DNA of 64,000 bases from an uncultured Alphaproteobacteria bacterium (GCA_964405515.1 CAYOOG010000001.1:1003-65002); one strand, 5' to 3'. Numbered from the stretch's first letter, positions 53,763-58,897 are shown. Notes: generated from the sequence alone by a model not told the origin. A program made the numbers and translations.

Positions 53763-55169
53763 GTGAATGATATGAAGGCTCTCAACCCCGTCTTGATCTC
53801 CGGCCGCGAGATATTGCCCCTTATTGAGGGGGGCAAGGGCGTGAGCATTAGCAATTGGAGCTCTTCGGGGGCCTGGGCGGCCTGCGGCGGTGTCGGCACG
53901 GTTTCCTGCGTTAATGCCGACCATTACGGTGAGGATGGCGAGGCCATTCCGCAGATCTACAACGGCAAGACCCGCCGCGAACGGCACGAGGAGCTGGTGA
54001 CCTACGCAATCGAGGGCGGCGTGGTTCAGGTTCAACGGGCGCACGAAGTGGCCTCCGGCGAAGGCCGTCTGCACATGAACATTCTTTGGGAAATGGGCGG
54101 CGCCGAACGCGTGCTCGAAGGCGTGCTCGAACGGGTCGGCGGTCTTGTCGATGGCGTGACCTGCGGCGCCGGTATGCCTTACCGCTTGGCGGAAGTCGCC
54201 GCCAAGTTCGGAGTCTACATCTATCCCATTATCTCCTCGGCCCGCGCCTTCGGCGCTTTGTGGCGGCGATCCTATAACAAGTATCCCGAATGGCTCGGTG
54301 GCGTGGTTTACGAGGACCCGTGGCTTGCCGGTGGGCACAACGGGTTGTCGAACAAGGAAGATCCCTTGAAGCCCGAGGACCCCTATCCACGGGTGGTCGA
54401 GTTGCGCAAGCTCATGCGGGAATTGGGCCTTGGCCACGTGCCCATCGTCATGGCCGGCGGCATCTGGTTTCTGCGCGAATGGCAGGATTGGATCGAAAAT
54501 CCGGATATGGGCCCCATAGTCTTTCAGTTCGGCACCCGGGCTCTGTTGACCCAGGAAAGCCCCATTTCCGATGAATGGAAGCGCCGCCTCGGCACGCTCG
54601 CCAAGGGGGACATCTCGCTGCACCGCTTCAGTCCCACGGGGTTTTACGCCTCAGCCGTGAATAACAGCTTCCTGCACGAGTTGGAGGAACGTTCGGCGCG
54701 GCAGATAGGATTTAGTAGCGAGGCCGATGGCGGCAAATCCGTGGCCTTTAAGTTCGGTCCGCGCAAGCGCGAGGTTTATGTCACGCCGGCCGACGAGGCC
54801 CGGGCCAAGGAATGGTTGGCCGCCGGATTTACGCAGATGCTGCGTACGCCAGGGGAAACCTTGATTTTCGTTACTCCCGAAAAGGCCAACGAAATCCATA
54901 AGGATCAGACCGATTGCATGGGCTGCCTTAGCCAATGTCTGTTTTCCAATTGGATGGCGGGCGAACCGGGAAATACCGGCAAAAAAGCGGACCCCAGAAG
55001 TTTCTGCATCCAGAAGACCCTGCAGGACGTGGCCCACGAGGGTTCGGTCGAACATAATCTTGTGTTCGCCGGGCACAACGCCTTCCGCTTTGCCGAAGAC
55101 CCCTTCTTTTCCAACGGCTTCGTCCCCACGGTGCGGCAACTGGTCGAACGCATGCTCACGGGCGACTGA
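53763..55169 (+). CDS. NMO-family (nitronate monooxygenase / FabK-like) FMN-dependent oxidoreductase, long form
   Basis: ILPLIEGGKGVSISNWSSSGAWAACGGVGTVS...PIVMAGGIWF is an NMO/2-nitropropane dioxygenase-like TIM barrel. It is 468 aa against a typical 320-370. Confidence 0.65.
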   Translation: MNDMKALNPVLISGREILPLIEGGKGVSISNWSSSGAWAACGGVGTVSCVNADHYGEDGEAIPQIYNGKTRRERHEELVTYAIEGGVVQVQRAHEVASGEGRLHMNILWEMGGAERVLEGVLERVGGLVDGVTCGAGMPYRLAEVAAKFGVYIYPIISSARAFGALWRRSYNKYPEWLGGVVYEDPWLAGGHNGLSNKEDPLKPEDPYPRVVELRKLMRELGLGHVPIVMAGGIWFLREWQDWIENPDMGPIVFQFGTRALLTQESPISDEWKRRLGTLAKGDISLHRFSPTGFYASAVNNSFLHELEERSARQIGFSSEADGGKSVAFKFGPRKREVYVTPADEARAKEWLAAGFTQMLRTPGETLIFVTPEKANEIHKDQTDCMGCLSQCLFSNWMAGEPGNTGKKADPRSFCIQKTLQDVAHEGSVEHNLVFAGHNAFRFAEDPFFSNGFVPTVRQLVERMLTGD

Positions 55170-55248
55170 AATCTTGACTTTTCTCCACTGCGGGCCGACC
55201 CTTATATGGAATGGTTCTTGACCATCGCCTAAACGGAACGCGCTACGT

Positions 55249-55689
55249 ATGAAAAAAGAGCCTAGCGATAAGTTTGGTCGGCCTTTTGCTGGTGCGTTGG
55301 AACAGTTGCGCCGCACGGGCATGCGGCCCACGCGCCAGCGCATGGCCTTGGCCAAGTTGCTCTTGGACGGCGGCAAACGGCACATTACGGCCGAATCCCT
55401 TCACGCGGAAGCGGCGGCCTCGGGCATCCGCGTGTCCCTGGCGACGGTCTACAACACGCTCCATCAATTCACCGGCGTCGGCCTTTTGCGCGAAGTCGTG
55501 GTGGATGCCGGAATCACCTACTTCGATACCCGGACCAACGACCATCATCATACTTATTGTCAGGACGACGGTACATTGCGGGACGTGGACGATGGCGATT
55601 TCAAGATTTCGTCCCTGCCAAAACCACCCAAAGGCACCGAAATCGAGCGCGTGGACGTGGTTATTCGCGTCAAGTCCAAGGGCCAATAA
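55249..55689 (+). CDS. irr: Fur-family regulator, Irr-like (iron response regulator, HHH motif)
   Basis: MRPTRQRMALAKLLLDGGKRHITAESLHAEAAASGIRVSLATVYNTLHQFTGVGLLREVVVDAGITYFDTRTNDHHHTYC. The internal HHH triad is characteristic of Irr. An Irr box lies just downstream. Confidence 0.7.
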   Translation: MKKEPSDKFGRPFAGALEQLRRTGMRPTRQRMALAKLLLDGGKRHITAESLHAEAAASGIRVSLATVYNTLHQFTGVGLLREVVVDAGITYFDTRTNDHHHTYCQDDGTLRDVDDGDFKISSLPKPPKGTEIERVDVVIRVKSKGQ

Positions 55690-55718
55690 TTGCTTAAGAA
55701 CAGCGTGTAATGCTTGGT

Positions 55719-55735
55719 TTTAGAATTACTCTAAA
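55719..55735. promoter_or_regulatory. Irr box / iron control element (ICE), TTTAGAA-tta-CTCTAAA
   Basis: It matches 13 of 14 positions of the alphaproteobacterial ICE consensus TTTAGAA-N3-TTCTAAA. It is immediately followed by TTGACA (55738-55743), then 17 nt, then CATATT. It lies about 160 nt upstream of the rubrerythrin ATG. Confidence 0.6.
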
Positions 55736-55894
55736 TGATTGACAGGCGGGCGGCGAGGGCCCATATTAACGCCAACCGCCGCCAATGCGGATAAGCGGAT
55801 GTCGTTGCGGGCGCAAATCGTTTCGCTTCGGCGTATTACTTGAACGGGCTCGGCCCAACCGAGCCAAATCAAACCATGGATAGGAGATCCCAAG

Positions 55895-56311
55895 ATGTCA
55901 CTTGCCGGGAGCAAGACCGAAGAGAATCTAAAAGCGGCGTTTGCCGGGGAAAGCCAAGCCAACAGGCGCTATCTCTATTTCGCTCAAAAGGCCGACGTGG
56001 AAGGCTATAACGATGTTTCGACGGTATTCCGCTCTACCGCGGAAGGTGAGACCGGCCACGCCCACGGCCACCTGGAATATTTGGAAGAAACCGGGGATCC
56101 GGCCACCGGCCTGCCGATCGGCAGCACCGCCGACAACCTCAAGGCCTCCGTTGCTGGTGAGACTCACGAGTATACGGATATGTATCCGGGTATGGCCAAG
56201 ACCGCCCGCGAGGAAGGCCACGACGAAATCGCCGATTGGTTTGAGACTTTGGCCAAGGCGGAGAAGTCCCACGCCGGACGTTTCCAAAAGGCGCTCGACA
56301 ACCTCGACTAA
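55895..56311 (+). CDS. rbr: Rubrerythrin-family diiron protein (erythrin-like, no rubredoxin domain)
   Basis: 138 aa. [26 protein letters not shown]...[12 protein letters not shown]...[50 protein letters not shown] has two ExxH diiron motifs. Confidence 0.85.
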
Positions 56312-56398
56312 ATTGTTGAAAGATTTTTTGGGCCCGGCGGCTTTGGTGGCGCCGGGTCCAGTTGTTCCAACACCTCTACGAAAAGGTAACGGGCCAAC

Positions 56399-57754
56399 AT
56401 GAGTGAAGAGGGTTACAGGGAAGGCAGTCTGGGGGCGCCGACCCGCCACCCCATTGATTGGCGTAGCCCGGCCTTTTATGACCAGGCGGAAATCGACGCC
56501 GAACTGCGCCGCGTTTTCGACATATGTCACGGCTGCCGGCGCTGCTTCAATCTCTGCGATTCCTTCCCGCGTCTTTTTGATCTTGTTGATGATTCGGAGA
56601 CCGGCGAACTCGATTGTGTGGACAGCAGGAATTTTGCATCAGTTCTGGCCGCCTGCACGCTTTGCGACCTGTGCTTCATGACCAAGTGCCCCTACGTGCC
56701 GCCCCACGAATTCGACCTGGATTTCCCCCACTTAGTGTTGCGCGCCCGCGCCGCCGCCCACCGGCAGGGTGAGACGCCCTTTGTCGTCAAGCAACTGGCG
56801 AGAACCGACCGCAATGGGGCATGGGCCGCGCCCATCGCTTGGGCCGTCAATTGGGCGGGGCGTGTTTCCAACTGGCTGACGCGGCCCTTGCTGGCCTTGG
56901 TTGCCGGCATTCACCGCGCCGCCGCCCTGCCGCGTTTCCATCGCCGCAGTTTGACGGTGCGTGCCCCAGGCGGCGAACCACCGGTCAACACCAAAGCCCC
57001 GGCCCACGACCGTAAGGCGGTGATCTATGCCACCTGCTTCGCCAATTTCAACGACCCGGCCATCGGCGCGGCGGCACAGCGCGTTTTGGCCGCCAATGGC
57101 GTCGAGACGGTGATCGAGCATTCGGCCTGTTGCGGCATGCCGCTCTTGGAACACGGCGACATCAAGGCCGTGGCGGGCCGCGCCGAGCAGGTGTCGGCGG
57201 CATTCCTGCCCTGGATCGAAAAGGGCTACGATATTGTGGCTCTGGTGCCGTCCTGCGCGCTGATGATGAAGTTCGAGTGGCCGCTGATCCTGCCCGGCAG
57301 CGAGAGCGTGCGCCGCCTTGCCGAGGCTACCTTCGATATCACCGAATACGTCGTGGACATCGCCAAGAAGGAAGGCCTGGGCACCCGGCCCGCGCCCCTC
57401 GACGGCGGTGTAACCGTGCATATTCCCTGCCATGCCCGGGCCCAGAACATGGGCGCCAAGGCGGCGGAGATGCTGCGGCTCATTCCCGATACTCCCATTG
57501 AGGTGATTGAGCGCTGCTCCGGCCACGGCGGCTCCTGGGGCATGATGAAGGATAATTTCGAAGTTGCGCTCAAGGTGGCAAGGCCCGTCGCAAAAACCGC
57601 CGCCAAGCAGGCCAACCCCTACCTGGCGTCCGAATGTCCGCTGGCCGGGCCGCACATTCTGCAGGCCATGGAGCGCCTGGAGGGTGAGATCCCCGACCGC
57701 GCCTGGCATCCCATTCAGTTGTTCGACAAGGCCACGGGTGGAGGCACACGATGA
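56399..57754 (+). CDS. (Fe-S)-binding oxidoreductase, HdrD/GlpC/GlcF-like: two 4Fe-4S ferredoxin motifs plus two cysteine-rich CCG domains
   Basis: The ferredoxin motifs are CHGCRRCFNLC and CTLCDLCFMTKCP. The CCG-domain cysteines are ...HSACCGMP... and ...HIPCHA...CSGHGGSWG. It is 451 aa and overlaps the downstream DUF3501 gene by 4 nt. Confidence 0.8.
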   Translation: MSEEGYREGSLGAPTRHPIDWRSPAFYDQAEIDAELRRVFDICHGCRRCFNLCDSFPRLFDLVDDSETGELDCVDSRNFASVLAACTLCDLCFMTKCPYVPPHEFDLDFPHLVLRARAAAHRQGETPFVVKQLARTDRNGAWAAPIAWAVNWAGRVSNWLTRPLLALVAGIHRAAALPRFHRRSLTVRAPGGEPPVNTKAPAHDRKAVIYATCFANFNDPAIGAAAQRVLAANGVETVIEHSACCGMPLLEHGDIKAVAGRAEQVSAAFLPWIEKGYDIVALVPSCALMMKFEWPLILPGSESVRRLAEATFDITEYVVDIAKKEGLGTRPAPLDGGVTVHIPCHARAQNMGAKAAEMLRLIPDTPIEVIERCSGHGGSWGMMKDNFEVALKVARPVAKTAAKQANPYLASECPLAGPHILQAMERLEGEIPDRAWHPIQLFDKATGGGTR

Positions 57755-58386
57755 GCAAGGCGGAACGGGAAATCACGCCCGCCGATATTTTGGCCCCGGC
57801 GGACTACGAAACCCGGCGCAAGGAATTGAAGGCACGGCTCCTGGAGACGAAACGTTTCCGCCGTGTCGCGGTCGGCCCGGACGTCACCTTCTACTTCGAG
57901 AATTACGACACCATGTGGATGCAGGTTCAGGAAATGCTGCGCATTGAAAAAGGCGGAGACGAGCAGTTGGCCGATGAGCTAGCGGCCTATAACCCCTTGA
58001 TTCCAAAGGGCCGTGAACTAGTGGCCACGATGATGTTTGAAATTGACGATGAGGGCCGCCGGGCCAGGGTCCTGGGCGCCTTGGGTGGTGTCGAGGACAC
58101 CGTGACCCTGACCGTCGATGGCGCGGCGGTGCGGGCGCAACCGGAGACCGATGTCGAGCGCACGACGGCCGACGGCAAGACCTCTTCCATACACTTCCTG
58201 CGCTTTGCCTTGTCGGATGATCAGGTGGCCCAATTTCGCAAGTCCGACGCTCAGGTGGTGCTGGGTATCGGACACGACGACTACGCGCACATGGCGGTGC
58301 TGCCCCCAGCCGTGCGTGAGGCTTTGGCGGAAGATTTTATGGATAAGCCTCGCCCGGCTGCACGCCCCACAGGCCGGAGCGCCTGA
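57751..58386 (+). CDS. DUF3501-family protein (uncharacterised)
   Basis: 211 aa. ITPADILAPADYETRRKELKARLLETKRFRRVAVGPDVTFYFENYDTMWMQVQEMLRIEKGG matches my recollection of the DUF3501 N-terminal pattern. It is translationally coupled (ATGA) to the CCG Fe-S gene. Confidence 0.6.
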   Translation: MSKAEREITPADILAPADYETRRKELKARLLETKRFRRVAVGPDVTFYFENYDTMWMQVQEMLRIEKGGDEQLADELAAYNPLIPKGRELVATMMFEIDDEGRRARVLGALGGVEDTVTLTVDGAAVRAQPETDVERTTADGKTSSIHFLRFALSDDQVAQFRKSDAQVVLGIGHDDYAHMAVLPPAVREALAEDFMDKPRPAARPTGRSA

Positions 58387-58897
58387 TCCAGCCCTCGTGT
58401 CCGGCGATATCCACCTGGCACCATTCTTTGCGGCAGGCCAATAGGCCCGCGATCACGCCGGGCTCGGCGAGCGCCAGTCGCGACGCGGCCAGGTTAGGCT
58501 CCTGGTACAGGGACTGCACGTCGTCGCCGACCACCAGGGCGGTCCGATCGCCGGACAACAAACCCCGGTGAACCCAGCCGACGGCGCCGTCGGCATCGCG
58601 CACCTTGCGCCACAGTTCGTATTCATCAATGACCTGAAGCGGCATGCCGGCCCGAACGATGACCCAGTCGATGGGATAACGCACACCGGGGCCGGTGCGG
58701 ATGTTCGCCTCCTTGGCGGTGACCGAGACGAAACGTGGCAGCGGCAGCCCGGTCTTGACCACGCGCTGCTCCTGGGCAGCCGGCGGCGGAACGATTTCCG
58801 CCGAAAAGGCAAAAACCAGAGCGATCAATGGGGCCACGAATCTCAAAAGGATATTCCCAGATGATGTCTTGAAAGCCCCGGTTTCCGGGACCTGCAA
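58337..58897 (-). CDS. Secreted protein with SH3b-like domain(s)
   Basis: It has a signal peptide (LLRFVAPLIALVFAFSA). EANIRTGPGVRYPIDWVIVRAGMPLQVIDEYELWRKVRDADGAVGWVHRGLL is a bacterial SH3-like segment. Its 3' end overlaps the DUF3501 3' end by about 50 nt, in convergent orientation. Confidence 0.55.
   Translation of the reverse strand: MQVPETGAFKTSSGNILLRFVAPLIALVFAFSAEIVPPPAAQEQRVVKTGLPLPRFVSVTAKEANIRTGPGVRYPIDWVIVRAGMPLQVIDEYELWRKVRDADGAVGWVHRGLLSGDRTALVVGDDVQSLYQEPNLAASRLALAEPGVIAGLLACRKEWCQVDIAGHEGWIRRSGLWGVQPGEAYP

Follow-up and report, generated by a model that had tools for sequence, protein, structure and literature searches.

An irr-linked aerobic-type rubrerythrin cassette with a predicted Irr-responsive promoter in an uncultured alphaproteobacterium

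A 64,000-nucleotide (nt) stretch of DNA from an uncultured Alphaproteobacteria bacterium (GCA_964405515.1, CAYOOG010000001.1:1003-65002), referred to here in its entirety as the window, carries at positions 55249-58386 what its sequence identifies as a four-gene cassette, irr–rbr–RFO–DUF3501, in which an aerobic-type rubrerythrin system lies directly behind its own regulator, the iron response regulator Irr. The region between irr and rbr holds a near-consensus Irr box adjoining a predicted promoter, and this composite operator-promoter, the adjacency of irr, and a stem-loop that follows rbr are conserved across many alphaproteobacteria. Control of the promoter by Irr, in one direction or the other, is very likely, and repression is the probable direction, whereas a role for RFO and DUF3501 in delivering electrons to the rubrerythrin is evenly poised. 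The full mechanism, combining haem-gated repression of the rbr operon by Irr with a peroxidase assisted by RFO and DUF3501, is the one favoured here on balance.

The four genes are co-oriented on the plus strand, and their open reading frames (ORFs) were found exactly where a preliminary description of this DNA had placed them. These are irr (55249-55689; 146 amino acids), a Fur-family regulator gene recognised by ORF calling and NCBIfam; rbr (55895-56311; 138 amino acids), encoding an aerobic-type, rubredoxin-less rubrerythrin of the ferriperoxin, sulerythrin and B. pseudomallei rubrerythrin (BpRbr) type; RFO (56399-57754; 451 amino acids), encoding an iron–sulfur (Fe-S) protein with CCG domains; and the DUF3501 gene (57751-58386; 211 amino acids), the last of the cluster. 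The ATG of the DUF3501 gene overlaps the TGA of RFO as ATGA at 57751-57754, as had been claimed. Pfam E-values are 4e-20 for the regulator (FUR), 2.5e-30 for the rubrerythrin (PF02915) and 1e-60 for DUF3501 (PF12007).

The preliminary description regarded this module as uncharacterised, which does not hold, since it has already been published as the aerobic-type rubrerythrin system (PMC5114695, PMC7050145). In 2016, Cardenas et al. defined the aerobic-type rubrerythrin lineage together with co-localised and co-occurring DUF3501 and RFO, reported the triad in 185 genomes, with DUF3501 and RFO fused in Nitrosomonas, and proposed that RFO substitutes for the lost rubredoxin domain (PMC5114695). 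Gray et al. subsequently described it as a three-component system of alphaproteobacterial origin that occurs in the mitochondria of protists, Andalucia among them (PMC7050145). Judged by their sequences, the window genes display three sequence features of the RBR-RFO-DUF3501 set: a rubredoxin-less rbr, a co-localised PF12007 gene and a GlpC-like CCG oxidoreductase. A DUF3501 protein identical to that of the window is encoded on a 7.7-kb metagenome-assembly contig with the same gene order, and the other nearest DUF3501 proteins in databases share at most 68% identity, so that the window proteins are diverged copies.

Assignment of the regulator rests on curated NCBIfam models, where it exceeds the cut-offs of both IrrA (NF045678, 197.5 bits against 150) and Irr (NF045677, 180.9 bits against 170). 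PerR models reached 32-58 bits and Fur models 16-47 bits, against cut-offs of 146-250, and no Zur model was listed at E <= 0.01. PerR, Zur and Fur identities were rejected on these scores, the first two being those that had been named beforehand as contradicting an Irr-like regulator. The HHH triad that had also been noted is present at residues 99-101.

The Irr box, or iron control element (ICE), reads TTTAGAATTACTCTAAA and occupies 55719-55735 in the promoter region, where it matches the 17-bp palindrome consensus TTTRGAAYNRTTCYAAA. Set against TTTAGAA-N3-TTCTAAA, its sole mismatch is T to C at position 11, in agreement with the 13 of 14 matching positions originally reported. A scan for further ICE motifs, which the preliminary description had proposed for the genome, was run over the 64-kb window and returned this single site, the only match at three mismatches or fewer; none of 100 shuffles contained any match at one mismatch or fewer. 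Scored with the position weight matrix (PWM) described below, the box reaches 22.9 and is the only site in the window above 10.

Immediately downstream lies the predicted sigma-70 promoter of the rbr operon (55739-55767, plus strand), composed of TTGACA (55739-55744), a 17-nt spacer and CATATT (55762-55767), and matching the consensus at 10 of 12 positions. This is the pair previously seen adjoining the box, and the only one found by the promoter scan upstream of rbr. Transcription is predicted to start near 55774, which would centre the ICE near -47, and the extended 23-bp Irr motif stops one base before TTGACA. An alternative promoter, in which the TAGAAT held within the left half-site would place the box over the -10, was rejected by sequence inspection, there being no -35-like hexamer 16-18 nt upstream.

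The arrangement was compared across related loci by scanning one genome per species with a DUF3501 alignment. This yielded 80 loci, nearly all titled Alphaproteobacteria (a few metagenome-assembled genomes are labelled otherwise) and including Rhodospirillales, Rhizomicrobium, Kiloniellaceae, Sneathiella, Azospirillum, Magnetovibrio, Pelagibius, Methylocystis and Phenylobacterium. Together with the published survey (PMC5114695), they bear out the earlier statement that the triad of rbr, an HdrD-like gene and DUF3501 recurs. The order and orientation of the triad are invariant in all loci. Sixty-eight loci, the window included, have a readable region upstream of rbr, and in 57 of these irr is immediately upstream and co-oriented, while 64 carry an Irr box upstream of rbr. 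A box was counted when its PWM score exceeded the 99th percentile of shuffled upstream regions; as the PWM started from the published consensus and was refined on the same loci, these scores are somewhat circular, but plain mismatch counts agree with them on box conservation. With these results the proposed gene-neighbourhood check favours the core of the preliminary description, namely an Irr and an Irr box ahead of an rbr/CCG Fe-S/DUF3501 operon, as does NCBIfam. The four loci without a box upstream of rbr are two from Phenylobacterium (L041, L078), one that also has no adjacent irr (L064), and L053; Irr was not found in Caulobacterales, the order to which Phenylobacterium belongs (PMC1698941).

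Conservation extends to the register between operator and promoter. In 53 of 63 loci a TTGAC-type hexamer begins 10-15 nt (mode 12) after the box centre, compared with 1.9% at random anchors; among these box-anchored loci, 29 have a perfect TTGACA as their -35 and a further 24 have TTGACN. CATATT-like -10 elements follow about 17 nt beyond the -35, CATATT itself being the commonest hexamer. Six Methylocystis loci (L029, L044, L049, L055, L072, L083) have the triad without an adjacent irr and retain an Irr box, TTTTGAATTATTCTAAT. Their geometry is reversed, unlike the Rhodospirillales type, with a TTGGACA -35 upstream and the box overlapping the -10 region. A tandem extra palindrome (GAGAATnnnTTCTC / ATTCTCA) was also observed immediately upstream of the main box in L022, L056 and the Rhizomicrobium-like L011, L016, L025 and L060, a hint that in some lineages two Irr dimers bind cooperatively.

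The regulators encoded beside these operators are alike in their haem-related motifs. Biochemically, apo-Irr binds the ICE, and haem at HxH abolishes binding (PMC7762939). All 57 of the rbr-adjacent irr genes encode this H-x-H haem-binding motif; the window Irr and all 57 adjacent orthologues lack the Cys-Pro haem regulatory motif (0/57 with a CP dipeptide). Because it has no Cys-Pro degradation motif, the window Irr appears to resemble the R. leguminosarum type, in which haem at HxH lowers DNA affinity without degradation, and not the B. japonicum type.

Irr may also act on its own gene. A marginal box-like site in the window, ATATGGAATGGTTCTTGAC at 55204-55222, has its centre 36 nt upstream of the irr start and a PWM score of 3.0, between the 95th (0.8) and 99th (4.6) percentiles of shuffles; it may be a weak operator for autoregulation. 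In 37 of 56 orthologous loci a second box, usually the weaker one, lies upstream of irr and scores above the 99th percentile of shuffles, which suggests autoregulation. Second palindromes such as CTTAGAAGCGTTCTAAC were noted approximately 60-170 nt upstream of irr in L011, L012, L016, L022, L025, L028, L033, L046, L048, L057, L060 and L082.

Downstream of rbr, a GC-rich stem-loop (56329-56360, plus strand) separates the rubrerythrin gene from RFO. The preliminary description correctly placed its core, CCCGGCG/CGCCGGG (56333-56339 and 56350-56356), but the loop is of 10 nt rather than 9, and the stem extends to 11 bp with one mismatch. The spacer folds better than shuffles (z = -3.17, 1/200), and perfect stems of at least 7 bp occur in 52 of 70 orthologous rbr-RFO spacers, compared with 5 of 70 coding controls; at 9 bp or more the counts are 33 of 70 and none. 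This conservation supports the earlier suggestion that the hairpin sets differential expression. In six loci (L011, L016, L022, L025, L033, L057) the same position is occupied by a canonical terminator with a T-run. The tail in the window, TCCAGTTGTT, has no U-run, and the terminator scan made no call there. Only 38 nt separate the end of the hairpin from the RFO start, and the promoter scan found no promoter-like site between the two. The stem-loop is likely to be a partial terminator or a 3'-stabiliser, which would yield more rbr than downstream message.

The rubrerythrin itself conforms to the short erythrin type that had been proposed, with PF02915 as its only Pfam domain over 138 amino acids and no rubredoxin domain. 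Its closest matches in the PDB are BpRbr (9onm/4di0, ~9e-71) and sulerythrin (1j30, 3e-50). The di-iron ligands E19, E52, H55, E89/E92, E123 and H126, including the ExxH motif, are invariant in 69 of 69 orthologues. Among characterised relatives, ferriperoxin of Hydrogenobacter thermophilus is a member of the aerobic-type lineage, acts as a peroxidase dependent on ferredoxin:NADPH reductase (FNR), and is required for aerobic growth (PMC3317640). Sulerythrin of Sulfolobus tokodaii likewise has peroxidase activity (cited in PMC12154734); close homologues bind Mn and Co besides Fe, and BpRbr has a promiscuous, pre-formed metal site (PMC12154734).

RFO was confirmed to be a 451-residue protein with two ferredoxin-type motifs (CHGCRRCFNLC at residue 43 and CTLCDLCFMTKC at residue 86) and two CCG domains, PF02754 being matched in two stretches. 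The literal CCG occurs once, at residue 244, and only three conserved Cys remain in the second CCG domain; overall, 15 Cys are invariant in 72 of 72 orthologues. There is no sequence match to solved structures. A membrane protein was rejected, as there is no hydrophobic segment (maximum Kyte-Doolittle 19-residue score, 1.54). The best NCBIfam neighbour is GlpC, although the scores fall below both cut-offs (NF008369, 165.1 bits against 278; TIGR03379, 86.4 against 279.9) and no glpA or glpB genes lie in the neighbourhood, so RFO is, by sequence, GlpC-like and not GlpC. GlcF (40 against 333), LdhH, TfrB and TcuB were also rejected, being below cut-offs and without their partner genes.

The DUF3501 protein matches PF12007 over the full length; homologues are of about 196 amino acids, and its 15-residue C-terminal tail is non-conserved. 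It shares the fold of PDB 3fjv, a functionally uncharacterised protein from B. pseudomallei; other fold neighbours are weak, distant Ig-like sandwiches, some of them metal-binding. His175 and His180 are invariant and no Cys is conserved, which makes it unlikely that the protein itself carries an Fe-S cluster. Clustering at 50% identity gave 2,342 DUF3501 representatives, and no DUF3501–RFO fusion was present among the top 150. Eight representatives (P0136, P0144, P0146, P0159, P0165, P0193, P0200, P0228) are of 240-320 amino acids, with the domain C-terminal and an N-terminal extension of 45-170 amino acids, and may be the mitochondrial-targeted eukaryotic copies of Gray et al. (2020).

In the mechanism favoured here, scarcity of iron or haem would lead haem-free Irr dimers to occupy the box centred near -47. 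As the extended motif ends one base short of TTGACA, bound Irr could keep sigma region 4 off the -35 and block RNA polymerase; this would spare iron, since one product of the operon is a di-iron protein and another is inferred to carry four Fe-S clusters. Once haem became available, its binding to HxH would deprive Irr of DNA affinity and allow the operon to be transcribed. The stem-loop after rbr would then terminate or stabilise part of the transcripts, leaving rubrerythrin in excess over RFO and DUF3501, which would be translationally coupled to one another through the ATGA overlap. The rubrerythrin would reduce H2O2 and organic peroxides at its di-iron site, with RFO taking the place of the missing rubredoxin domain as electron-delivery partner, and DUF3501 serving as an adaptor, docking aid or chaperone.

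Several considerations weigh against this scheme. Irr binding and iron-responsive expression, at this locus and its orthologues, are predictions, as is the transcription start, and the box sits upstream of the -35 (centre ~-47), not over the -10/+1 as at proven repressed promoters. Irr can be a repressor or an activator depending on box location, direct activation being common (PMC7762939), and in Pelagibacter iron limitation raised the level of rbr transcripts 1.57-fold (PMC2864753), contrary to what simple repression would give. With respect to electron delivery, ferriperoxin worked in vitro with FNR (PMC3317640), so RFO and DUF3501 are not proven donors, and the authors of the 2025 structural preprint on BpRbr still call a donor role for these operon partners a hypothesis (PMC12154734). 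The absence of a redox cofactor motif from DUF3501, together with its distant, exclusively Ig-like fold matches, makes a role as chaperone or adaptor no less likely than one in electron transfer. Finally, the full canonical terminators at the hairpin position of some orthologous loci call into question whether the three genes are always co-transcribed.

Part of this evidence would suit activation, in which Irr bound upstream of the -35 at low iron or haem recruits RNA polymerase, so that a non-haem peroxidase stands in for haem catalases and peroxidases at times when these cannot be synthesised. The rigidly conserved offset of the box from the -35 is what a protein–polymerase contact would call for, the dual action of Irr and the Pelagibacter response agree with it, and the binding of Mn and Co by close rubrerythrin homologues is a further point in its favour. 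Nevertheless, activation is unlikely. Activator-dependent promoters usually lack a good -35, and the perfect TTGACA or TTGACN hexamers of so many loci point to a promoter that needs repression rather than an activator. The products are iron-expensive, with a di-iron site and 15 invariant Cys, which argues for repression at low iron; the Methylocystis box, lying over the -10, is in the classical repressor position and compatible with repression only. The characterised rubrerythrin-like targets of Irr, blr7895 and mbfA in Bradyrhizobium and Rhodobacter, are repressed (PMC3413700), which favours the same direction here, and the Pelagibacter effect is small and comes from a locus outside the present comparison.

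The stable hairpin found after rbr in most loci, which in six is a T-run terminator, raises the further possibility that Irr controls rbr alone and that RFO-DUF3501 is a separate unit, with no single module. This is improbable, given the missing U-tract in the window, the shortness of the gap before RFO and the lack of a promoter-like site found within it, the invariant order and orientation in all loci, and the strict co-occurrence of the triad (PMC5114695). Less probable still is a cassette that is not mainly a peroxidase, where the rubrerythrin would be a ferroxidase or iron buffer, DUF3501 a metallochaperone and RFO a factor for the repair or reduction of metal sites. Control by an iron regulator would fit such a function, the Pelagibacter rubrerythrin is annotated as a hypothetical ferroxidase (PMC2864753), and the promiscuity of the BpRbr metal site is compatible with it; however, the DUF3501 fold matches are weak and generic, ferriperoxin, the sole rubredoxin-less homologue tested both biochemically and genetically, is a peroxidase essential for aerobic growth, and sulerythrin shares the activity. 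Expression also tracks oxygen in Magnetospirillum, where rubrerythrin is down-regulated under anoxia (PMC9549626).

Other structures were noted within the cassette and its relatives. A 5' untranslated region (5'UTR) stem-loop (55840-55872, plus strand) lies about 30 nt upstream of the rbr ATG, and the perfect 7-bp stem described earlier, GGCTCGG/CCGAGCC, does exist, at 55847-55853 and 55859-55865, some 4 nt from the positions first given. It is neither distinctive nor well conserved: the whole 5'UTR folds no better than shuffles (z = -0.61), and although perfect stems of at least 7 bp occur in 10 of 43 orthologous 5'UTRs against 4 of 129 coding controls, their position is not conserved. A conserved regulatory structure was rejected on this basis, and the hairpin is probably incidental. 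Rfam gave no match at E up to 1 within 55100-58600. Three Azospirillum-like loci (L019, L065, L081) share a long rbr 5'UTR stretch downstream of the promoter, ggtggcataagcc...gctcggccgc.tgaggcc.catgcccg.gcg.gaccgggcc, which may represent an RNA element of that lineage or no more than close kinship. Within the RFO coding sequence, the minus strand has a stem and T-run resembling a terminator (57597-57628), probably by chance, as such sites are overall fewer than in shuffles.

The cassette is native to the chromosome, since composition shows no break and the flanking genes are syntenic in many relatives; a horizontal transfer island was rejected for these reasons. Upstream, 80 nt before irr, is an NMO/FMN-oxidoreductase-like gene (53763-55169, plus strand; 468 amino acids; weak PF03060), whose product has a C-terminal CxxCxxxC...C cluster (CMGCLSQC...FCIQ). 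It holds the equivalent position in about 17 related loci, and might provide flavin/Fe-S electron input for the module or merely be inherited gene order. Downstream, an SH3-domain gene on the minus strand (58337-58897), syntenic in many loci, converges on the DUF3501 gene with a 50-nt overlap (58337-58386) that is accounted for by the non-conserved tail of DUF3501.

These observations argue that the module is expressed according to haem and iron status. The module is widespread, as indicated by the 185 genomes of 2016 and the 2,342 DUF3501 cluster representatives, and has reached the mitochondria of some protists; the present comparison shows that in alphaproteobacteria it usually travels with its own Irr, a tightly conserved operator-promoter and an internal stem-loop after rbr. 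This offers a simple natural system, with a single target, in which to study the action of Irr at a promoter. Cultured carriers, namely Azospirillum, Sneathiella and Pelagibius among the 80 loci and Magnetospirillum in the literature, are a better experimental entry than metagenomic sequence. A more speculative and rather doubtful proposal is that irr–ICE–rbr–RFO–DUF3501 is the ancestral home of Irr, which would have begun as a local regulator, PerR-like in role, gating a non-haem peroxidase by haem, and become global only in Rhizobiales. If so, the module gated by the ancestral Irr would be the one later inherited by mitochondria, and the rigid spacing of box to -35, the frequent second box before irr and the conserved attenuator after rbr would amount to a complete circuit, self-contained and not described as such.

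With regard to known systems, both halves of this idea are already in print, the RBR-RFO-DUF3501 set in PMC5114695 and the prediction linking Irr to rubrerythrin-like genes in PMC1698941. Not found in the texts cited (for the 2006 study, its main text) were the near-universal physical linkage between irr and the triad among alphaproteobacteria outside the rhizobia, the fixed box-to--35 register, the second irr box and the conserved post-rbr stem-loop. The window shares with the published aerobic-type rubrerythrin system its three co-localised, co-oriented gene families, a rubredoxin-less rbr, a CCG GlpC-related oxidoreductase and PF12007, but the papers describing it make no reference to Irr (0 occurrences in PMC5114695), whereas the window is one of the 57 of 68 loci with irr directly upstream. 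Rodionov et al. (2006) predicted minimal Irr regulons in Rhodospirillum, Magnetospirillum and Pelagibacter, limited to a cytochrome c peroxidase gene or a rubrerythrin-like one (PMC1698941). The resemblance there lies in an Irr with one or two ICE sites, one of them before the rubrerythrin-like gene, and in the shared consensus; the main text is without irr–rbr adjacency, downstream RFO and DUF3501, a fixed ICE-to--35 register, or a hairpin after rbr.

The Irr targets blr7895, mbfA and bfr of Bradyrhizobium and Rhodobacter (PMC3413700, PMC7762939) have in common with the window the Irr family, the box and a rubrerythrin-like di-iron target domain. They differ in being membrane-bound ferritin/VIT1 fusions or bacterioferritin, where the window target is a soluble peroxidase triad, and in a box that overlaps the transcription start, where that of the window adjoins the upstream edge of the -35; in addition, B. 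japonicum Irr is degraded via its Cys-Pro haem motif, which the window Irr lacks. Ferriperoxin, sulerythrin and BpRbr are likewise rubredoxin-less rubrerythrins of about 140 amino acids with the same di-iron ligands. Their hosts have no Irr regulation, since Irr is, to our knowledge, confined to alphaproteobacteria. In Hydrogenobacter, moreover, the RFO gene lies apart from the rbr and DUF3501 genes (PMC5114695). RFO resembles GlpC, HdrD and GlcF in having two ferredoxin-type Cys motifs followed by two CCG domains, and departs from them in having no nearby GlpAB, HdrE or GlcDE partner and no membrane segment. The window therefore offers a further, diverged example of a known module, placed under a regulator that had already been predicted, rather than a new type of system.

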